Virus record (IMG/VR): IMGVR_UViG_3300017989_000087
Coordinates: 1-64,000 of that record
DNA from: a virus
Taxonomy: Duplodnaviria; Caudoviricetes
Reading direction: 5' to 3' (one strand)
Length of the DNA stretch: 64,000 bases
Positions 3,533 to 50,919 of this stretch are shown here, piece by piece. The translations under genes and the position numbers were made by a program. Every line of letters starts with the position of its first letter. Position 1 is the stretch's first letter. The notes under the pieces are model-generated. The model was given only the letters and a program-made list of their open reading frames with translations, searched no databases and had not been told where the DNA came from.

Positions 3533-5013
3533 GTTTACCCACGGCGATTGAACTCAACAGGGCGTTTTCAGATCCAGTTTATTTTGCCGAGAACATTTTG
3601 AATGTTCATGACATATATCCATACTGGAAAAATGTTCTGAGGGAATTCTACAGCCGTGATGAAGAAGGCAATGTTAAATATCGTGAGCTTGTGGCCTGTG
3701 TTGGGATGGGTTCTGGCAAAACATATACCGCAGCTATCATAACATTATTTGAGTTTTTTCAACTTATCATGTTTGACTCTCCGCAGGAGCATTACAATTT
3801 GTCTAAGGCTTCGCCAATCTACATTGTCAACTGTGCCAAGTCTGAAGCACAGGCAAAGTCAACTGTATTTGGTGCTGCCAAGAACTTCATTCTTGACTCT
3901 CCGTTTTTTCTTGATTTGATAAAACGTGGAAAGATAAAGCAGAGGCACAATGAATTTGAGCACGTTGACAAGAGGGTATTCCTGAAATCGGAACATTCAC
4001 ATTCTGGTTCACTCGCTGGAAAGAACTCGAAGTGCGTTGTTTTTGATGAGCTTGCGAAACTTGATTTTACTGCGTCTGGCGAATCTGCTGCTGATGAGGT
4101 TTATGCAATTGTAACCAAGGCAACTGGTAGGTTTGGTGTTGATGGCAAGATTGTTTCTATCTCTTCGCCAATATCAACCAACGATAAATTTTATAGCCTT
4201 GTAGAGAAGGGGAAGAAGAACCCAAATCTAAAGATGCTTGTCATACATAAACCAACATGGGATGTTGTCGATTTGAATGTCAAGCCCGAATATGCGTTTG
4301 ACTCAGACATGATGATAGCAGAGAGGGAAAAGGATTATGATAAGTTTATGCGTGATTATGGAGCACAGCCAATGGGAAGGGTTAGACCATTCTTTCCCGA
4401 TGTCAAGCCGATAAAGGATTGTGAGGAAAACAGAGAGAACCCGATTGAGCTTGATAATGATGGAGATCCAACTCTTGCCGATTGGTTTAAACCCAAGGAT
4501 TATATCTATGTGGTTGCTGGTGATCCTGCATTGAAGCGTGATGCCTTTGGTCTTGCTATGGGGCATCTTGAAGGCGAGAACATAGTTGTGGATTTTGTGA
4601 CCAAGTTCCAAAGGTTGGGCGAAGAGAAAGAGATTGATGTAAAGAAAGTAAGAGAATTTGTGATGTCTCTTCTCGACAGAGGTTTCAATATTCTCATGTT
4701 TGTCACAGATATTAAATCCTATCCAGAACTTTTCCAAGACCTTGAGTTTCGTGGAGTTGAAGTTAAACAATCATTCGTGAAGAAAGAAACGTATGACTAT
4801 CTCAAGGAAAGGATGAACCTGAATGAGATACTATATCCCAAGAATCCAGACCTTGTGGATGAACTCAGACACCTTGAACTTATGTCCGCAAGGAAGGTTG
4901 ACCATCCCAAATATGGTTCAAAAGACATGGCAGATGCTTTGGCAAACGTGGCATTTTTCGTAAAAGATGCCGATATTGAGCCTCCGAAGTGGGTGTTTGT
5001 GGACAAATGGTAG
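3529..5013 (+). CDS. terL: terminase large subunit
   Basis: Walker A VGMGSGKT, Walker B CVVFDE, coupling motif SISS, RNase H-like nuclease AGDPA...SKDMADA. Confidence 0.93.
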   Translation: MSLPTAIELNRAFSDPVYFAENILNVHDIYPYWKNVLREFYSRDEEGNVKYRELVACVGMGSGKTYTAAIITLFEFFQLIMFDSPQEHYNLSKASPIYIVNCAKSEAQAKSTVFGAAKNFILDSPFFLDLIKRGKIKQRHNEFEHVDKRVFLKSEHSHSGSLAGKNSKCVVFDELAKLDFTASGESAADEVYAIVTKATGRFGVDGKIVSISSPISTNDKFYSLVEKGKKNPNLKMLVIHKPTWDVVDLNVKPEYAFDSDMMIAEREKDYDKFMRDYGAQPMGRVRPFFPDVKPIKDCEENRENPIELDNDGDPTLADWFKPKDYIYVVAGDPALKRDAFGLAMGHLEGENIVVDFVTKFQRLGEEKEIDVKKVREFVMSLLDRGFNILMFVTDIKSYPELFQDLEFRGVEVKQSFVKKETYDYLKERMNLNEILYPKNPDLVDELRHLELMSARKVDHPKYGSKDMADALANVAFFVKDADIEPPKWVFVDKW

Positions 5014-5074: not shown

Positions 5075-6418
5075 ATGACATCCTTCACCGAAAAAATTAG
5101 AGAACTCGCACAAGTTCCCCGTGATGCTAAACCAAAGATGGTGAGAGTGCCTTGGGGAGACTCTGAATCATATTACACAAAACGTGAGGAAGAGTATAAA
5201 GGAATGAATAAGTATTGGGCAGAATACAGACGTTCTTCAATAGTCAGACAGTCATTAAATTTGCTTGGCTATTTTGCTATCCACTCTGGCTTCAGGATTT
5301 CAGCCGTTGGTGGATCAAAGAGATATAACACAAAGATATCAAAATACTTGAATGATCTTTCTAGACGGGTACACCTTGAAGATGCAATCTTTATTGGTGT
5401 AATTGGAAAAATGATTTGGGGAAGATTTGGTTTCGAGATAGTTAGAAATGGCGACAATGAAATTGTCCATCTATTACCCCTGTTTCCGGGCGAGAACTTG
5501 ATTCCCAAGTTTGACGAGAACAACATCCTGAAAGGGTTTACTTTCAAGATGGGCGGTGGCAGGAAGATAGAATACGAACCCGAAGAGGTGCTATTTTTCG
5601 TTGAAACTTCTCTGGATCACAAGATGAAAGGATTATCAAGGATAGAACCTATACTCACTCCATGTGAGATTAAGAGAAGACTTTATCAAGACCTGAAGGA
5701 AGCAAGCAAACGTTTGTGGTCTCCGATAGGAATATTCCAGCTTGATACAAGCAGGGAGAAAGACCCAGACAAAAAGGAAGAAGCCCTCAGAGAATTCAAG
5801 AACCAGATGGAACCGGGCAAACCAATTGTCACTAATGCATCGGTTAGTGGTCAGTTTCTTAGTGCCATGCCCGATGTTGAGAGAATCGTTAGAGCCATTG
5901 ATAAAGTTGATGAAGAGATTATGGGAAACTTTGGTATACCAAAAGCGTTGCTATCAAGAGAGAAAACAATGAACAGGGCAACTCTGGAGTATTCTCTTGT
6001 TGCTTTGTACCAATCTCAGATTGAAGGAATACAGAGGTATGTCGGAAGAGAAATTGAACAGCAGTTGCTTGAGATGGTCAAGGATGATGTTGTTGGAAGC
6101 AACGGCAGTACAATAACATGTGAACTTGTTTGGAATCCAAGAAACTCTCTAGAGATGGATAGACAGTTCGGACCAGCTATAACACTCTATTCGCTTGGGT
6201 TAATTGATGCCGAATATCTTTATGATATGTTGAGTTTGGATAAGAACAGGATGCCAGAATATATAAAGAAAGCTGAAGAGGAATATGAAGGTGGAGTTAG
6301 ATATTCCCCAGATGTTTTGAGAGCATCTTTAACTGAAGCGTCAAGAAATGAGGAAGCGAAGGTGCGAGAAGCTATAAGCAAAGTAGTGAAGGATACTAGT
6401 GAGGAAAATGCCATATAA
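5075..6418 (+). CDS. portal protein
   Basis: Follows TerL; IWGRFGFEIVRN..L.PL..., GLSRIEP, FGIPKALL patterns of portals. Confidence 0.88.
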   Translation: MTSFTEKIRELAQVPRDAKPKMVRVPWGDSESYYTKREEEYKGMNKYWAEYRRSSIVRQSLNLLGYFAIHSGFRISAVGGSKRYNTKISKYLNDLSRRVHLEDAIFIGVIGKMIWGRFGFEIVRNGDNEIVHLLPLFPGENLIPKFDENNILKGFTFKMGGGRKIEYEPEEVLFFVETSLDHKMKGLSRIEPILTPCEIKRRLYQDLKEASKRLWSPIGIFQLDTSREKDPDKKEEALREFKNQMEPGKPIVTNASVSGQFLSAMPDVERIVRAIDKVDEEIMGNFGIPKALLSREKTMNRATLEYSLVALYQSQIEGIQRYVGREIEQQLLEMVKDDVVGSNGSTITCELVWNPRNSLEMDRQFGPAITLYSLGLIDAEYLYDMLSLDKNRMPEYIKKAEEEYEGGVRYSPDVLRASLTEASRNEEAKVREAISKVVKDTSEENAI

Positions 6419-37196: not shown

Positions 37197-38123
37197 TCAT
37201 GGTCTTTTAACAGATTCTGCATTTATTTGTGGTTGGTGAAGCTGACCAACTGCCCATTCGCCCGTGTTATTTAACAAATCCTTTTGAAACCAGTATAAGT
37301 GATTATTTTTCATATCTTCTCTCTCTTGCCAAGTTTGCCAACAATGAACATTAGGATTTATTGCTCTAAGTTTTTTTCTACATTTTGGACAGAATACCCA
37401 ATTGTTTCTGCACATTATACATGGGTATGCGTAATTATTCATTTTATCTTTTCCACCACCATGATCTGGCAATGTGCTGTAATCTTCATCATGATACATA
37501 TTGCCTATGTCGTGACCCAACTCGTGCCATGCCAAACCAAGGTTTCTGAAGTGGTGCTTATGTGCATTTGGTCTGTTATAAACTTCATCTATAGCTTTTG
37601 AAAGCTGAAATCTAAATGCTACTTGCGAACTGCCATGCATATCAACATGGTCAAACATTGTCAAAAACTCAGGAACAGATACTGGTATTTCATATTTTTC
37701 TTTTAATAGAGACATGCTTGTAATTGGATGTATAAACGATTCTTCATCGGCGTATGTGGTGCTAACTTCAGAGTATTCTTCTGGTGTTAAAAACAACATA
37801 TAATATCCCGGTTCAAACCCTGCCATTCTGAATGGATATGACAACATATGTATCATTTGATCTGATATTAATTGTCTCTTTTCTTTATTTGTATAACCAA
37901 GCATAATTAGCAATTCATTTTTGTTTCCTTCATGATAATGAAATTTGATGTCACCACGTATTGTTATTGTTATGTTTCCATGTTCATCGGTTTTGCCTTT
38001 GAATATATCATCAACATATGTTTTGACATCCTCAATAGGGTTTGAACTATCGTCCTCTATATTTATAATGAAAGGATTATCATATTTGATAATCTCGGGC
38101 ATATCAATTAACATTATTAACAC
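37197..38123 (-). CDS. archaemetzincin-like zinc metalloprotease with N-terminal beta-sandwich
   Basis: HELGHDIGNMYH zincin motif, then CIM (Met-turn) and FCPKC. Confidence 0.75.
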   Translation of the reverse strand: MLIMLIDMPEIIKYDNPFIINIEDDSSNPIEDVKTYVDDIFKGKTDEHGNITITIRGDIKFHYHEGNKNELLIMLGYTNKEKRQLISDQMIHMLSYPFRMAGFEPGYYMLFLTPEEYSEVSTTYADEESFIHPITSMSLLKEKYEIPVSVPEFLTMFDHVDMHGSSQVAFRFQLSKAIDEVYNRPNAHKHHFRNLGLAWHELGHDIGNMYHDEDYSTLPDHGGGKDKMNNYAYPCIMCRNNWVFCPKCRKKLRAINPNVHCWQTWQEREDMKNNHLYWFQKDLLNNTGEWAVGQLHQPQINAESVKRP

Positions 38124-38335
38124 GTTATGCTAAGATCATATGGATCAACACGAACATATCCGCTTCCATTGCATACAGGACATTTGTGTACCTTGTGATC
38201 GCTTGTTTCTATCCAACCCTTTCCATTACAACCATGACAGGGTTTGCTTCTGTCATAATTCCAATAATTGTCGTATGGGTATATCCAATCAAACGAAGCA
38301 TCTCCGGTTCCATTATCATATCTGTACAACATCAT
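38117..38335 (-). CDS. DnaJ-type zinc-finger protein
   Basis: CHGCNGKG and CPVCNGSG (CxxCxGxG x2). Confidence 0.75.
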   Translation of the reverse strand: MMLYRYDNGTGDASFDWIYPYDNYWNYDRSKPCHGCNGKGWIETSDHKVHKCPVCNGSGYVRVDPYDLSITC

Positions 38336-39432
38336 CTACCTCTTTTTGCTATCTTTTCATAGAACTTTTCCAATCCACCAATGTTTGCTTCTACCGTCCA
38401 ATTATCCTTCTGATTTTCCACATTAGATATATATGGATTGATGTTTTTAAATGTTATCTTTTCTATATCCCCAGTTTCCCATCCTTCGAGAATAGGTTCT
38501 CCAACATCATATTTCTGTACCCAATTTTTAACATCTCTCGAATTATCACACAATACAGGTAAACCAGCACCAAATGATTCAAACATTTTATTCGGCAGGG
38601 TATGCTCAAGGAACTCTTCATTTGTTTTGTTAAATGCAACTATTCCTGCATCATACTGTGTCATAACTCGCATCAATGTTGATAGATCTGTTGGGTTGTG
38701 CCAATGGAGGTTCGGTGATTCTAGTGGTACTCTGTTCTTTCCTCTCCTGAATTCTATAGAAGAATGTACATGCACATGTATTCCTTGCTTAAGTAACTTT
38801 TTAAACAATCTCCATATATCTCTGTGATCTGCCCATTGGTTATCTGCTTCTCCATACATCTTTATACCGCCTTCCCAAACAAGATGTATCTGTCCGTCCA
38901 TATCTGATAATTTAGTCCTTGGGTATTTTGTGGCAAATCTTTCCAAATAATAATTTGGGAACACATAAGACTTGTCTATGTCAATGTTGTATGTGTCAAT
39001 TACATACTGTCTCTGTCCTTCTGATACAAACAAATTTCCATCTGCACGCTGGTTGGCTAACGCTTCTGCATACCCTGCCGTTGATTGGTCAACATGATTA
39101 AACGTTGTTAGTGCATCATGACAATCGTGAATAACGGGTCTTTTGGAGTTTACAACAAGATGATTTGTATAAACATCTGGAGTATTTGAACTATGGATCA
39201 CATCAAATGTGTCTTTGTTATTTGTTGCAGCATTTAATGCCTCTCTCCAACATTTATCACATTCGTTGCTTCCCATGCTAAGAATGGCCTTGTATGGTTG
39301 AAATCCCCAAGTTGATAATCTATTTCCTTGCTGCATTAGGAACATTGTCCAACCTAAATCCGTAAGACCGTAAGCTATTTTGTGCGACCTTGAACATCCT
39401 TGTGATTGTACTATTAGTGCCCATTTATTCAT
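38332..39432 (-). CDS. glycosyltransferase, GT-B/GT4-like
   Basis: DVIHSSN, IHDCHD, PNKMFESFGAGLPVL acceptor/donor motifs. Confidence 0.8.
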   Translation of the reverse strand: MNKWALIVQSQGCSRSHKIAYGLTDLGWTMFLMQQGNRLSTWGFQPYKAILSMGSNECDKCWREALNAATNNKDTFDVIHSSNTPDVYTNHLVVNSKRPVIHDCHDALTTFNHVDQSTAGYAEALANQRADGNLFVSEGQRQYVIDTYNIDIDKSYVFPNYYLERFATKYPRTKLSDMDGQIHLVWEGGIKMYGEADNQWADHRDIWRLFKKLLKQGIHVHVHSSIEFRRGKNRVPLESPNLHWHNPTDLSTLMRVMTQYDAGIVAFNKTNEEFLEHTLPNKMFESFGAGLPVLCDNSRDVKNWVQKYDVGEPILEGWETGDIEKITFKNINPYISNVENQKDNWTVEANIGGLEKFYEKIAKRGR

Positions 39433-40385
39433 TATATCACATCCATTTTCTTTAGTTGTCTCAAAAGTTGTGCTGATGCTTGTTTTGGTTCGTGTCTCTC
39501 AAAAAATTTATTATATGCTGTGTTGTTTTTATGGTCTTCATTGTTTTCAATTGCATCAACAATATGCTCAGATAGGTGTTGCGAATCTGTTAGTATGAAC
39601 GGCGAATCCTTAACATATTCCTCAAGCGCAGCATTAACACTTGTTATTGTTGGAATTCCCATCATACCAGATTCAATTGCAGCCTGTGAATAGAATTCAG
39701 AATTGTGCGAATCTATCATAACATCCAATTGGCTCAAAATACTCAAGACCCTTCCACGAGTTTTTTTGTTTATTTCTATATAACCCAACATTTTATCATC
39801 ACAAATTACCTGTGCTTTTGCGATAGCAGAACCATACACATCTCCCCTTGTAAAACTTCCTATGCTTGTCCAAGCATCTGGAATTATATATTCTACATCG
39901 TCTGATCTCATTGATGTATCAGACGGATTAACAGAACATGGAGAATTTAGATAAACAACCTTATCATCGTAGTCCTCAAGATACATTTTTAGATGAGGCT
40001 GTCTTATGAAAATTATTTTTGCGTTTTCAATCAAATCTTTATTTTCACTATTTAGACATGTTATTATTTGGCCCTCAGTAAAGAAATATGGTACTATTGG
40101 AGCTTCAATATCATTCTTTATTTTATAAATATCTGTAAGATTGTTGAATTCTCCAAAGAATATGTACAAATCATATTTGTCCATAAAGTTTCTTTTTATT
40201 ACGTTTTGCATCCTCATGTTTGAATCTTGCTGTATTATATCGGTTGGATATAAATATCTGCTTGGATAAATCTGGAACGATCTAGCCCTCAATCCTTCGG
40301 ATATTGCGGTCATATATATCGAATACAGATATGATATATTCTTTTCATTTTGTATGCTCATATTCATAACTCTCATTCTTTCCAC
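39432..40385 (-). CDS. glycosyltransferase-like protein (GT-B, divergent)
   Basis: SQAAIESGMMGIPTIT motif; paralogue of the upstream GT. Confidence 0.65.
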   Translation of the reverse strand: MERMRVMNMSIQNEKNISYLYSIYMTAISEGLRARSFQIYPSRYLYPTDIIQQDSNMRMQNVIKRNFMDKYDLYIFFGEFNNLTDIYKIKNDIEAPIVPYFFTEGQIITCLNSENKDLIENAKIIFIRQPHLKMYLEDYDDKVVYLNSPCSVNPSDTSMRSDDVEYIIPDAWTSIGSFTRGDVYGSAIAKAQVICDDKMLGYIEINKKTRGRVLSILSQLDVMIDSHNSEFYSQAAIESGMMGIPTITSVNAALEEYVKDSPFILTDSQHLSEHIVDAIENNEDHKNNTAYNKFFERHEPKQASAQLLRQLKKMDVI

Positions 40386-41396
40386 CTCAAGTAATAATTT
40401 GGGTCTTCTTTTGGAACCATGCCTTCATATATATTCTTGTAATACTCTCCTATTTTCTTTGGGCTATGAAACGTTGATGCCCATGCTATACGTTGTTTCT
40501 CTGTCCTTTTATATGTATCGTAATCAAACAATGTTGCCTTCAATGCGTCAACAAAACCATTTATATCGCATGATTTTATTGTACAGCCGGGATAGAACTG
40601 ACCATAATTTGGATCTATCCAAGCCAGAACAACATTGCCCAATAACATTGCCTCTATTGCTGCAACACCATAGCACCCTATGTTAAATTGGTCAACATAT
40701 ATATCTGAAATTTTCATCATTTGCAAAGATTCCCAATGTGTCTTATTTTTACATAGTAATATATTAATATTGTTATAGTTATTTTTCATAAATCTTATAC
40801 CATTCATTATTGGCCTTGTTCCCTTTATTCCCACATTTGTTGTTGTGTGCAATATGGTCAATTCATCGTCATAACCAACTCTCACATCGCCCATTGAAGA
40901 TTTTGAACAAACATAATATGGATCTATAGAAACGGGATTGGGAACAAAAAATGTTTTATCAGAATATTTTTTTGGTATATATTGAAGCAAATCTGGCGTA
41001 GAAACAAATATGTATTTTGCTACGTTATTCAATGTTTTTGAACCACCATACATTCTAAGATATGAACCGTGATAATGTAGATATATTGGTTTTCCCGAAG
41101 GGAGAATTCTGCTTTTGACTATTTCTGGCAATCCATAGGTTGAATGAATATGGTATACATCTGCCTCATCAAAATTGTTATCATAAAAACATCTAGAAAT
41201 ATTGTCCTTGCTTCTTGGTATTGGTGTTATAACATCTTCTGGATATTTGATATAAGCGTCACTATATATACTCCATTGTCTTGAATATGTTCCTGCCCTT
41301 GTTTCAAATTTGGACAAGAGATATGGGACATTTGCAAGATTCCAGCCTAGTAAGATTCTTACATAGATTCTGTCCTGTCAAATGCAAAACAAACAT
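40373..41396 (-). CDS. GT4-like glycosyltransferase interrupted by a 28-nt insertion (41340-41367)
   Basis: GGAGGTGG RBS and TAATG coupling at 41396; exon 2 has DVYHIH, DIYVDQF..GCYGVAAIEAMLLG; frame restored by removing 28 nt. Confidence 0.8.
41340..41367 (-). other. candidate bulge-helix-bulge (BHB)-like microintron, 28 nt
   Basis: Two AAU bulges flanking a 3-bp+A.G central helix, 11-bp exon-exon helix, inner hairpin GUAAG/CUUAC. Confidence 0.6.
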
Positions 41397-41468
41397 TATT
41401 CCACCTCCAATATTTTTTTAACAACTTCTTTTTTATATCCTCTCAAATATGGAAATAATAAATTCATA
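41397..41468 (-). CDS. 23-aa peptide translationally coupled to the GT gene
   Basis: AGGTG RBS; MNLLFPYLRGYKKEVVKKILEVE*; its stop TAA overlaps the GT ATG (TAATG); coordinates approximate. Confidence 0.35.
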
Positions 41469-47844: not shown

Positions 47845-50800
47845 CTAATCAAAATCGAATGTTTTTCTTTCTTCAAACTCTTTTGTTTTTCCTTCATTCC
47901 ATTGGGATACTGGTCTGAGATATCCAACTACACGAGAATATACCTCACATCTCTCGCCACACATTGGACATTCGCTGAATTGACCAGAAAGATATCCGTG
48001 GTTTGGACAAGCCGAGAAGGTTGGTGTTATAGTGAAGTATGGCATCTTAAATGAATTAGTTATCTTTCCAACCATGTTTTTTAGAGAATCTACATTTGGG
48101 TGCTCATCTTGAAGGAATATATGGAATACTGTTCCACCAGTATATTTTGATTGGATATCATCTTGCAGGGTCATGGCCTTGAATAAGTTGTTTGTATAAT
48201 TAACTGGTAATTGTGTCGAATTGGTGTAGTATGGAACTTCATCAGTTCCAGCGGTAATGATATCCGGGTATTTATGCTTATCTATTCTCGCCAATCTATA
48301 TGAACATCCTTCTGCTGGTGTTGCTTCAAGATTAAACAAATGACCTGTTTCCTCTTGATAATCTATCATCCTTTCATTCATATGATCTAATACATTCAAC
48401 GTAAAATCAACCCCATCTTTCATAAACATATTTGAATCCATGAAATTTTCAAGGCACTCATTCATCCCAACCAAACCAATGGTTGAAAAATGATTGGCCC
48501 AATATTTCCCATGTCTTGATTTTACATCTCTAAGAAATATAGAAGAATATGGATATAACCCATTCTCAGAATAATTCTCTATTATATTTCTTTTTATTAT
48601 TAATGCATTTTTTGCAAGATCCATTAACGAATCTAATCTCTCATAGAAATCAGAATCGTCCTTGGATACATACCCAAGTTTTGGCATATTGATTGTAACA
48701 ACACCTATGCTACCTGTCAATGGGTTAGCACCAAAAAGACCCCCGCCTCTCTTAATCAATTCTTTTTTATTTAGGCGCAGCCGACAACACATTGATCTAA
48801 CATCATCTGGACTCATATCCGAATTAACAAAATTAGAAAAATATGGTATGCCATATTTAGATGTCATTTCCCATAGAGGATAATAATTTTCATTGTCCCA
48901 ATCGAAATCTTTTGTTATGTTTAGAGTTGGGATCGGAAATGAAAACGGATTTCCTCTTCCATCGCCCTCATTCATAACTTCACCAAAAGCACGATTAAAC
49001 ATATCGGCTTCATCAGCAAAATCACCATAGGTATCTTCCATATATTCCCCGCCTATGATAACTGGTTCATTTTCCATATAACTTGGTGTTTTTAAACTTA
49101 GAGTAAAATTTTCAAATGGTGATTGAAACCCGGTTCTAGTGGGGACATTGAGATTGAAAACAAATTCTTGCATTGCTTGTTTTAGTTCATCATAGCTTAT
49201 ATTATCATAACTAATAAATGGTGCAAGATACGCATCAACATCAGAAAAAGCCTGTGCTCCAGCGGATTCTCCTTGGAGGGTGTAAAGGAAGTTAACAACT
49301 TGGCCCATAGCGACCTTTAGATGTTTGGGCGGTTTACAATTTACTTTTCCCGAAACTCCATTAAATCCATGATCCAAAAGATCTCTCATATCCCATCCGA
49401 CACAGTTGCCAGATATAACAACCTTTCCATTTCTTTCAACAATTAATGTTCCGTTTGGAACAGATAGATCATATACTATACCATTGTATTTTACTATTTT
49501 TTTCTCTTTTCTGAATATTGGTGTTAGTTGTGAGTTTTGAACATACACCACATATACATTTTCTCTTTTGCCTATGGTTCCGCACTTACCAATCTTTAAT
49601 AAACACTCAACAACATCTTCTGCCAATCTTTTTGAGGCAGTAGTGTATTTTGTCATATTTCCATCTTTGAAAGAACCATCGCCTTTAAATAAAGCCATAA
49701 GAAATATTCTAATTTTTTCACTAGTCATATTTTTTATGTTATCGGGTATATATTTTGTCTTGCTTATTCCAAATTTTTTGAGATAATGATAAACTTCTTT
49801 TGAACAAAATTGAATATTATATTCTCCACAACTAGGAGAAAACCCCATATCCCTTACAATATCTATTACCTCATTTCTATATTTCATCTGAGCAATAGAT
49901 ATTATATAATCAGAAGAAGTTCTATCTTTTCTATTATTTTTCCATGCAGATCCTTCTGATATCCACCAACCCATAAACTTTAAATATAAGTCGGTTGGGA
50001 TTCGGACATGTCTTAATCTATTTCCCCCATTAATTTTTGGAAATGAAAACATAGGATCTGGTTCATTTCCACTCCAATTTACCCGCTTCAAAAATTCTGA
50101 GGATTTATCTAATTTTTCTGCAGTTGTGAATTCCCAATTGTTAGACGATTTTCGTTTAACAAACATCCTATGTTCAGGCGTAACAAGTAAATCTATTCCT
50201 CTTCCATCTATATGATATAAACTGCCATCATATTTATATACTTGTTTATCATATGGTTTTTGATATTCCATGTTTCCGTTGTCTGTATTATATGTTGCTA
50301 CTTTGTCATTTAATGTCACATCTGAAAAAGGTTTAAATCCATCTATGCAAAGAACTCTGGTTTTGTCATCAAAACAATAAGCTCCTAGTGTCCCGAGATC
50401 ATGTATATGTATATTACCATCATGATTTGATTTTCTTATATCATCTGGATATATCTCTTCAAGCCAATAATTTGATACTACTCTTGATGAAAGATAGTTA
50501 TTCAACCCCTGAAGTGAATATGTCATATTTGAATTTTCTTTTACTCTCCAATCTTCCTTATTTATATAATCTTGAACTATTTCTGTATCATGAACAAGTT
50601 TTGATATATTTCTTGCCTTGGAATGTTGTTCTCTATAGAGTATATACTTTTTTGCGGTTCTATAAAAACCAACTCTCATCAATGAAGTTTCAACCCTGTC
50701 CTGTATTTCTTCAACCGTTGGTGCATGATCCAACCGTTCTAGTTGTTGCGTAACATTATTCCCTATTCTTTTTGCATCGTCATGTTCTCCTTCACCAGTT

Positions 50801-50889
50801 GTTAAAAAGGCTTTATTCAATGCCGATATTATTTTTTCCTTATCAAATTTTTGGAGACTACCATCTCTTTTTCTTATTCGTTTAAGCAT
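47845..50889 (-). CDS. nrdD: anaerobic (class III) ribonucleoside-triphosphate reductase with ATP cone and intein
   Basis: IRKRDG ATP cone; SMCCRL finger loop; CPNHGY..CPMCG; glycyl-radical YSRVVGYLRP. Confidence 0.95.
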   Translation of the reverse strand: MLKRIRKRDGSLQKFDKEKIISALNKAFLTTGEGEHDDAKRIGNNVTQQLERLDHAPTVEEIQDRVETSLMRVGFYRTAKKYILYREQHSKARNISKLVHDTEIVQDYINKEDWRVKENSNMTYSLQGLNNYLSSRVVSNYWLEEIYPDDIRKSNHDGNIHIHDLGTLGAYCFDDKTRVLCIDGFKPFSDVTLNDKVATYNTDNGNMEYQKPYDKQVYKYDGSLYHIDGRGIDLLVTPEHRMFVKRKSSNNWEFTTAEKLDKSSEFLKRVNWSGNEPDPMFSFPKINGGNRLRHVRIPTDLYLKFMGWWISEGSAWKNNRKDRTSSDYIISIAQMKYRNEVIDIVRDMGFSPSCGEYNIQFCSKEVYHYLKKFGISKTKYIPDNIKNMTSEKIRIFLMALFKGDGSFKDGNMTKYTTASKRLAEDVVECLLKIGKCGTIGKRENVYVVYVQNSQLTPIFRKEKKIVKYNGIVYDLSVPNGTLIVERNGKVVISGNCVGWDMRDLLDHGFNGVSGKVNCKPPKHLKVAMGQVVNFLYTLQGESAGAQAFSDVDAYLAPFISYDNISYDELKQAMQEFVFNLNVPTRTGFQSPFENFTLSLKTPSYMENEPVIIGGEYMEDTYGDFADEADMFNRAFGEVMNEGDGRGNPFSFPIPTLNITKDFDWDNENYYPLWEMTSKYGIPYFSNFVNSDMSPDDVRSMCCRLRLNKKELIKRGGGLFGANPLTGSIGVVTINMPKLGYVSKDDSDFYERLDSLMDLAKNALIIKRNIIENYSENGLYPYSSIFLRDVKSRHGKYWANHFSTIGLVGMNECLENFMDSNMFMKDGVDFTLNVLDHMNERMIDYQEETGHLFNLEATPAEGCSYRLARIDKHKYPDIITAGTDEVPYYTNSTQLPVNYTNNLFKAMTLQDDIQSKYTGGTVFHIFLQDEHPNVDSLKNMVGKITNSFKMPYFTITPTFSACPNHGYLSGQFSECPMCGERCEVYSRVVGYLRPVSQWNEGKTKEFEERKTFDFD
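49405..50376 (-). mobile_element. intein (324 aa) with LAGLIDADG homing endonuclease in nrdD
   Basis: Starts CFDDKT, block B VTPEHRMF, LAGLIDADG-like FMGWWISEG and LMALFKGDG, block F VYDLSV, ends SGN/C; removal restores GAY-CVGWD. Confidence 0.92.
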
Positions 50890-50919
50890 AAAATCACTAC
50901 TCACACTTAGTTGGATGAG

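Follow-up and report, generated by a model that had tools for sequence, protein, structure and literature searches.

How might a tailed archaeal virus express a glycosyltransferase (GT) gene that opens with strong translation signals and then stops after 30 codons? The question is raised by a 64,000-nucleotide stretch of DNA (the window), the first 64 kb of the 86.8-kb IMG/VR virus record IMGVR_UViG_3300017989_000087, in which three GT-like genes follow a gene for a 226-residue protein on the minus strand and the first of the three is broken (coordinates below are on this strand unless stated otherwise). A Shine-Dalgarno (SD) sequence, GGAGGTGG (41401..41408), lies 4 nt upstream of an ATG (41396..41394) placed within a TAATG overlap; GGAGGTG occurs only 7 times in the genome. 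The frame that starts there, MFVLHLTGQNLCKNLTRLESCKCPISLVQI, ends at a stop at 41306..41304, and the 314-residue GT-B open reading frame (ORF; 40373..41317) lies in the +1 frame relative to it. Gene callers start this ORF at a TTG (41317), which yields 314 residues instead of 331. These coordinates confirm what an earlier note, made from the letters of this DNA alone, had said of the SD, of the TAATG at 41396, and of the 30-codon frame. Removal of 28 nt (41367..41340) gives MFVLHLTGQNLANVPYLLSKFETR... and fuses MFVLHLTGQN with LANVPYLLSKFETR. The note took these 28 nt for a bulge-helix-bulge (BHB) microintron, and we hold it about an even chance that the segment at 41340..41367 is indeed such an intron, spliced by the endonuclease EndA and the ligase RtcB.

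The comparison with orthologues identifies the 28 nt as a true insert. Two JGI contigs (L003 and L004) are syntenic with the window at 91-94% DNA identity and encode a 331-residue protein (P0019) that falls in the same 90%-identity protein cluster as the 314-residue ORF and begins MYVAHITGQNLANVPYLLSKFETK. A third contig (L002) encodes a 56%-identical orthologue (P0003) that begins MKILHAAGMNLANVPYLL. All three lack exactly these 28 nt in the DNA alignment (A1), and the joined N-terminus is colinear with P0019 and P0003 without a gap. The earlier note had drawn this colinearity from the adjacent paralogous GT (39432..40376, MRVMNMSIQNEKNISYLYS..., 24% identical) and had suggested checking whether the insert is absent or covarying in related viruses; its absence from the three contigs and the alignment to the two orthologues give the claim a stronger footing than the paralogue did. 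The candidate intron, UCUAUGUAAGAAUCUUACUAGGCUGGAA (41340..41367), would thus separate a 29-nt exon 1 (41368..41396; ATG and codons 2-10, MFVLHLTGQN), which retains the orthologue-conserved residues H5, G8, and N10, from an exon 2 (40373..41339) that holds the rest of the GT-B glycosyltransferase, i.e., residues 11-331 of the joined product and the stop.

The insert is found letter for letter in four further assemblies (L005-L008, from ENA and Logan), whose contigs are 100% (in one case 99.99%) identical to the window across 7.7-12.9 kb. We therefore rejected an assembly artefact, the sequence being identical in five assemblies. A repeated mobile element was rejected as well, because neither the insert nor its 20-nt core has a second copy in the genome or in the viral_contigs and metagenome_contigs collections. 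Queries of the viral and metagenome collections with the protein and with an alignment (A3) returned no further orthologues or alleles of the junction, and the 90% protein cluster contains no joined product of the window lineage. The L003 cluster comprises the sole relatives of the upstream gene.

The RNA around the insert can adopt the fold of a BHB intron (position 1 is the A of the ATG at 41396). An exon-exon helix, h, pairs G12-G18 and C20-G23 (GCAUUUG-A-CAGG, 41374..41385) with C59-U69 (CUUG-CAAAUGU, 41328..41338, within exon 2) in 11 pairs, leaving A19 bulged. The central helix, H, joins ACAG (41370..41373) to CUGG (41342..41345, within the insert) through the standard pairs of C25-A26-G27 with C52-U53-G54, with A24.G55 as a fourth 'pair'. 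The two bulges are both AAU (A28-U30, 41367..41369, and A56-U58, 41339..41341), with predicted cuts between 41368 and 41367 at the 5' site and between 41340 and 41339 at the 3' site. Within the insert, an inner hairpin, h' (CUA-U-GUAAG-AAU-CUUAC-UAG, C31-G50, 41347..41366), has 3+5 pairs, one bulged U, and next to it one extra G; its apical loop carries the third GAAUCU of the locus (41353..41358). The flanking helices of a BHB intron are thus both present, one between the exons and one in the intron, whereas a 4-bp central helix is reached only by counting the non-standard A.G pair. The mismatch and the extra G had been pointed out in the earlier note, and both are seen in the fold. As the note also stated, the rule established for EndA, to cut after the second base of each bulge (here A29 and A57), removes exactly 41367..41340 and leaves the colinear product. 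The GAAUCU direct repeat allows seven cut registers with an identical product. Read from the pairs, BHB-like geometry (at least 3 central-helix pairs) occurs in one of the seven, the register with cuts after A29 and A57, so that the sole BHB-like register restores the orthologue-colinear frame.

How often would such a fold coincide with the insert by chance? For a bulge-anchored h with at least 11 pairs, the per-position probability is p = 2.7e-4. We scanned both strands of the 86.8-kb genome for motifs with at least 3 of 4 pairs in H, a junction-anchored h of at least 11 pairs, and an inner helix of at least 8 pairs, at intron lengths of 11-130. This returned 2 matches in ~2x10^7 position/length pairs, one of which is exactly the insert defined by homology. 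The other (5993, inside the portal gene) was rejected as an intron, its removal producing stops. With looser thresholds, and allowing for the seven registers, the probability is still 1e-4 to 1e-5. It is unlikely that the fold lies on the insert by pure coincidence, and the real alternative to splicing is a structure created by the mutation that gave rise to the insert. Two other statistics were discarded: the energy of the whole hairpin is uninformative, and that of the unanchored exon-exon duplex is unspecific, the intact L002 equalling the score of the window. A genome-wide scan for BHB introns at ORF breaks was swamped by fusions of adjacent genes, and the only other high-quality motif that it gave was the false one at 5993. 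A longer intron of 99 nt, from ATG 41467 to TAT 41365, was also considered and rejected, with no BHB-like match at those boundaries.

The sequence downstream of the break shows no decay relative to the intact allele. Exon 2 differs from L003 at 70 of 970 nt, spread evenly, and the ratio of nonsynonymous to synonymous changes (dN/dS) of the GT gene is 0.098, next to values of 0.03-0.26 in its neighbours. Relaxed selection, which the earlier note would have read as a sign of a pseudogene, was therefore not seen. Among the 14 amino acid differences, polarised with P0002, P0003, and P0004, 1 is derived in the interrupted lineage, 7 are derived in the intact one, and 6 are ambiguous, which indicates that the GT was constrained along almost all of the branch on which the interrupted allele lies. 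Either the break is very recent or it did not abolish the function. Pfam has no match for the 314-residue ORF itself; its homologues carry PF13439/PF00534, and the neighbouring paralogues give weak GT1/GT4 matches. A low-confidence AlphaFold model of P0019 (pLDDT 53) has a beta-alpha pattern in the N-domain, in which the 17 N-terminal residues absent from the 314-residue ORF would make up strand beta-1 (2-7) and the start of helix 1 (13-24). A product re-initiated at TTG 41317 would accordingly be predicted to lack part of the Rossmann core.

Inserts of this type are also found in a putative host lineage and in related viruses, where they serve as controls. In the metagenome-assembled genome (MAG) G001 (SPRUCE_22), cbf5 is split at the codon of the catalytic Asp by 25 nt (L018:1481-1505, minus strand; G001:C9 ~3584-3608). 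The minimum free energy (MFE) fold is a textbook BHB (GGA/UCC, CUCU/AGAG, bulges AGA and AAA, GGCUU/AAGCC hairpin) with further long exon-exon helices, and none of 200 shuffles folds as well. When each bulge is cut after its second base, the joined exons read CUA-GAU-CCC, i.e., L-D-P. This MAG holds a relative of the capsid protein (MCP) of our virus; in the other MAG that does, G002 (Guaymas Bathyarchaeota), cbf5 is uninterrupted. These observations suggest that the splicing of cbf5 mRNA extends to Bathyarchaeia.

The controls from the viruses concern the MCP itself. The alignments of several homologues (35-43% identity) extend over only 85% of the query, and in five contigs the missing N-terminus is encoded by a small upstream ORF, ~124 nt ahead of the called start of the main ORF. 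The MCP genes of these five related viruses are interrupted after ...EEVLGLAR by a structured insert of 87, 87, 89, 88, and 90 nt (L030:476-562, L031:1374-1460, L032:98-186, L033:473-560, and L036:471-560, respectively). The frame offset between the two ORFs follows the insert length modulo 3, and removal at GCGAG/A ... /A(C/U)C (slashes mark the cuts) produces open, colinear proteins with no internal stop. RNAalifold predicts long helices between the exons and a three-way core within the intron; the central helix has 4 bp, and the 3' site falls in a 3-nt bulge. Compensatory changes affect 17 of 48 pairs. The 5' site lies in an internal loop, and the BHB is more relaxed than that of the GT candidate. 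No Rfam family matches the MCP intron or the GT region. The rule of cutting after the second bulge base was validated on both the cbf5 and the MCP controls. Since the capsid gene is essential and five diverged viruses cannot all carry it as a pseudogene, BHB-like inserts must be removed at the RNA level in this group; RNA-level introns in protein genes thus exist in these viruses, as judged from frames and covariation. The gene callers split the capsid genes of these relatives in two. The case of the GT is weaker than that of the MCP intron, but it has an informative intron-less sister allele.

The genome itself is that of an archaeal virus. Genes for portal, HK97-type capsid, and tape-measure proteins, as in tailed viruses, are on the plus strand, and the minus strand carries replication genes, including family B polymerase (PolB), a PD-(D/E)XK nuclease, UDG, and an intein-bearing NrdD. 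The best matches of PolB in the phage and archaeal-virus collection are all haloarchaeal tailed viruses. The MCP has only two matches among 185,579 species genomes, both Bathyarchaeia MAGs, and the sole named homologue that a large protein collection offers comes from 'Candidatus Bathyarchaeota' (52% identity). The host is thus probably a member of the Bathyarchaeia, on evidence from PolB and MCP relatives that is consistent even if roundabout. Each of the two Bathyarchaeia genomes holding MCP relatives encodes two EndA paralogues and one RtcB, and the EndA pair follows the pattern of heteromeric, broad-specificity endonucleases. Neither an EndA nor an RtcB gene was found in the virus record, and a TerL search of these two MAGs gave no match.

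If the insert is spliced, an 11-bp helix in the pre-mRNA would join the first 29 nt of the GT gene to the start of exon 2 while the insert folds as its own hairpin, so that the two AAU bulges would be opposed across the short helix ACAG/CUGG. The host EndA, presumably heteromeric and of broad specificity, as the two Bathyarchaeia paralogues suggest, would cleave each bulge behind its second base, and the exons would be ligated by RtcB. The product would be a 331-residue enzyme colinear with the uninterrupted alleles, and the expected spliced junction is CAGAATCTTGCAAAT, flanked in this lineage by TTGACAGGA... and ...ATGTCCCATATCTC. We infer cleavage and ligation at the GT site; what was observed are the insert, the frame break, the colinearity, the fold with its rarity, the archaeal context, and introns of this kind in the capsid genes of the related viruses. 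More tentatively, and with some doubt, we propose that this Bathyarchaeia virus depends on the EndA and RtcB of its host for the GT and that the intron originated on the spot, when a tandem duplicate of the first 28 nt of the gene evolved into a hairpin.

The surroundings of the insert tell something of this origin. Between the ATG syntenic with the start of the intact allele (41467..41465) and codon 2, the sequence of the window lineage is longer than that of L003 by 99 nt. The excess is in-frame overall, yet it holds TAA and TGA stops, and it consists of a mini-ORF, then the SD and exon 1, then the insert. The mini-ORF (41396..41467; 23 codons, MNLLFPYLRGYKKEVVKKILEVE and a stop) lies between the upstream gene and the GT, starts at the syntenic ATG, ends in TAATG, and belongs to the 99 nt that L003 lacks. 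Its residues 2-15 (NLLFPYL..K.E) resemble GT residues 10-24, and the mini-ORF has the look of a remnant left when a GT copy was deleted or rearranged. The tail of the mini-ORF (ILEVE and stop), together with the SD, resembles the GT-GT junction (YLRWKE and stop) at 40373-40390. When the insert and its 3 preceding bases are read in the ORF frame, they give I-Y-V-R-I-L-L-G-W-N-L-A-N-V-P, which has the same length as M-Y-V-A-H-I-T-G-Q-N-L-A-N-V-P in L003, and tblastn aligns this insert-frame N-terminus with the intact allele without gaps. Local duplication of the first 28 nt of the gene, and not invasion by a foreign element, is the probable source of the insert.

This origin, and several features of the fold and of the data, weigh against splicing. 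The insert lies inside a 99-nt patch of partial 5'-end duplicates in which GAATCT is present three times; the earlier note had seen the direct repeat, but in two copies. The likeness of IYVRILLGW to MYVAHITGQ has an empirical p of 0.0034 relative to random open 8-codon stretches of the genome, and should the insert duplicate the first 28 nt of the gene, colinearity upon removal follows by construction and is no evidence for splicing. The RNAfold MFE structure is a long imperfect hairpin (-17.9 kcal/mol), in which A24-U58 and U30-G51 pair, so that a 3-bp helix remains between a bulge of 3 nt and one of 2 nt. The canonical 3-4-3 conformer (-14.9 kcal/mol) lies 3.0 kcal/mol higher, accounts for ~0.6% of the ensemble, loops out the extra G51 between h' and H, and has a central helix of only 3 standard pairs plus the A.G. 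The fold that the note described exists, with its 11 pairs in h and with the AAU/AAU bulges as one possible arrangement, but not as the MFE. The energy of the whole hairpin is unremarkable (z = -1.38), whereas the MFE of the cbf5 control is a perfect BHB (z = -4.5). Loose BHB-like motifs (at least 3 of 4 pairs in H, 4 in h, and 2 in h') number ~4,300 per strand in this AT-rich genome, and 814 of them would 'extend an ORF'. One motif 40 nt upstream, at 41384-41410, is even numerically 'canonical', with an AAAA/UUUU central helix, an 8-pair outer helix, and a length of 27 nt; it spans the SD and ATG 41396, consists of A/U runs, leaves a senseless product upon removal, and was rejected. It is a caution on motif scans in AT-rich DNA. 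The insert-bearing contigs of the five assemblies are all of one genotype. The host assignment is indirect, and queries with the first 20 kb of the virus found no CRISPR spacer match in 401 Bathyarchaeia genomes (35 of which have short matches to the virus, none within repeat arrays). The interpretation as a microintron thus retains the true insert, the register, the archaeal setting, and the cbf5 and MCP controls, but has lost the canonical BHB as the dominant fold and a central helix of more than 3 standard pairs.

An unspliced scar of duplication or recombination, in which a partial 5'-end duplication within the 99-nt rearrangement broke the frame recently, is a possible explanation, although to us a doubtful one. 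The GT would then be dead in this lineage, or present as a truncated 314-residue product of re-initiation at TTG 41317; the neighbouring paralogues might cover its role, and the likeness to a BHB would be a by-product of the origin of the insert, e.g., of an insertion into an existing hairpin loop. The earlier note had kept a duplication scar as a caveat, and this caveat gains weight from the N-terminus-like translation of the insert and from the patch of partial duplicates. When exon 1 and the insert are taken as two 28-nt units, 13 of 28 bases are identical between them (p = 0.025). The three GAATCT copies, the mini-ORF with its GT-like residues, the ease with which any tandem duplicate of the first 28 nt yields colinearity, the intact allele in the sister lineage, and the unfavoured canonical fold all agree with a scar, and an undecayed exon 2 is equally expected for a recent event. 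However, the two units are only 46% identical, far more diverged than expected for a duplication that postdates the split from L003, and neither of them reaches the ~92% identity to L003 that both flanks show. Set against the gene-wide synonymous divergence from L003 (dS = 0.365) and the strong constraint on exon 2, this identity implies that the scar must be both old, being diverged, and young, having caused no decay. An old, tolerated interruption fits splicing, and a recent import by recombination fits a scar. Two further points speak against the scar: under the genome-wide null, the chance that the best BHB-like fold lies exactly on the insert is ~1e-4 to 1e-6, and the truncated product would, in the structural model, be without strand beta-1.

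The break might also be overcome in translation, with no cutting of RNA, or in the DNA. We consider translational recoding improbable in any of its four variants: a 28-nt ribosome hop from the AAU of codon 10 to a matching AAU, as in T4 gene 60; an early +1 shift (e.g., at GGA-C, codon 8) giving MFVLHLTG followed by RIYVRILLGWNLANVP..., in which 9 extra residues extend a full domain; the same shift aided by a virus tRNA with an 8-nt anticodon loop; or a start at ATC 41368 in the ORF frame. The hop is made attractive by the AAU-CU matched at both ends of the gap and by the hairpin immediately 3' of the take-off codon, but the codon after take-off is CUA, neither a stop nor evidently hungry, the nascent peptide has only 10 residues, and the exon-exon helix is impossible with a ribosome on codon 10. 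We know of no archaeal example of hopping. In favour of a shift or an alternative start, the ORF frame is open from 41377 onward and yields a GT-like N-terminus when translated, and the genome does encode a tRNA with the anticodon loop c-a-AUCC-a-g. General quadruplet reading is nevertheless unlikely, as the genes of the virus show no depletion of in-frame GGAU (164 observed against 140 expected) and the sequence at the GT site is GGAC. The ATC 41368 has only a weak AGGA upstream. The remaining possibility, a switch in which the GAATCT repeats at the base of the hairpin permit a precise 28-bp deletion during replication and turn the gene from OFF to ON in a fraction of genomes, seems to us very improbable. 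Deletions classically recur where direct repeats flank a hairpin; the event is mechanistically easy, and the deletion product would have an intact frame. Yet all five assemblies have only the insert-bearing form, re-insertion would not be reversible, and the intact allele of L003 and L004 belongs to another lineage with a different junction (AATTTGGCA against AATCTTGCA) and is no revertant.

The tRNA with the odd loop lies outside the window (L020:2609-2682, equivalent to G000 66608-66682, minus strand). It scores 51 bits with Rfam, has the 8-nt anticodon loop, is called tRNA-?(Asp or Gly)(atcc) by ARAGORN, and could be a reader of the quadruplet GGAU or a defective or odd tRNA.

Splicing of the GT insert would find its closest precedent in cbf5, essentially the one archaeal gene for which protein-gene introns removed by the tRNA machinery are confirmed in print. 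The cbf5 pre-mRNA introns of Desulfurococcales and Sulfolobales are 16-44 bp long, have mostly unconventional BHB motifs, are cut between the second and third bulge residues by a heteromeric endonuclease, and are present or absent among relatives (Watanabe 2002; Yokobori 2009, PMC2738675). The GT insert shares with them its length (28 nt), a relaxed BHB, the cut after the second bulge base, a change of frame (often seen in cbf5), the presence and absence among close relatives, and, as proposed here, the heteromeric EndA. It differs in lying in a viral gene of another protein family, in the A.G of its central helix, in a motif that is not the MFE, in its resemblance to an exon duplicate, and in being known from sequence alone. 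With the cbf5 intron of G001 and the viral MCP introns, it shares the putative host lineage or the virus group, the long exon-exon helices, and the restoration of the protein by the same rule; however, the MCP introns have covariation and frame tracking and the cbf5 intron has a perfect 3-4-3 MFE, whereas the GT insert is known in a single genotype. The BHB introns of archaeal tRNA and rRNA (Marck and Grosjean 2003; PMC4090602) have the same two opposed 3-nt bulges, the helices h and h', and the chemistry of EndA plus RtcB that we propose for the GT, which differs from them in its mRNA context and in a 4-bp helix that requires a non-standard pair.

Among viruses, the earlier note knew of no established BHB intron in an mRNA, which agrees with the literature we searched: it contains no BHB introns in viral protein-coding genes besides a suggestion made for the rudivirus SIRV1, and a survey of Bathyarchaeia viruses does not mention introns. 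The 12-bp indels of SIRV1 were once proposed as 'putative introns' but are unproven (Peng 2004, cited in PMC2738675). They too are short inserts in archaeal virus genes, but they are in-frame multiples of 12 bp, have no BHB, and were never shown to be spliced. Unlike them, the GT insert shifts the frame, and its removal or bypass is thus required for function. The bypass in T4 gene 60 has a short non-coding gap between matching codons and a hairpin at the take-off site, as does the GT; its 50-nt gap, the stop after take-off, the long nascent-peptide signal, and the bacterial host are not shared.

If the insert is spliced, a viral gene joins cbf5 on the list of such introns, and the expression of a viral gene is tied to the EndA and RtcB of the host. 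Because both an intron-less sister allele and a likeness between insert and exon are available, the locus would also be a model for intron origin, in which the gain of a BHB intron by duplication is caught in the act. Along with the MCP introns, it would then belong to a habit of splicing mRNA that has so far gone undescribed for archaeal tailed viruses. Genes of this kind come out of gene callers truncated or split, so annotation pipelines for archaeal viruses need a BHB-aware step.

We found no second gene that is broken between the window and L003 lineages. A small CxxC zinc-finger gene (38117-38335, compared with L003:9056-9250) differs by an in-frame 9-nt indel, a deletion in L003; it was considered as a broken gene in L003 and rejected, the 31-residue call being an artefact of start choice. 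The NrdD (anaerobic ribonucleotide reductase) gene of the window (47845-50904) encodes an ATP-cone and an intein with a LAGLIDADG domain (~residues 200-485).

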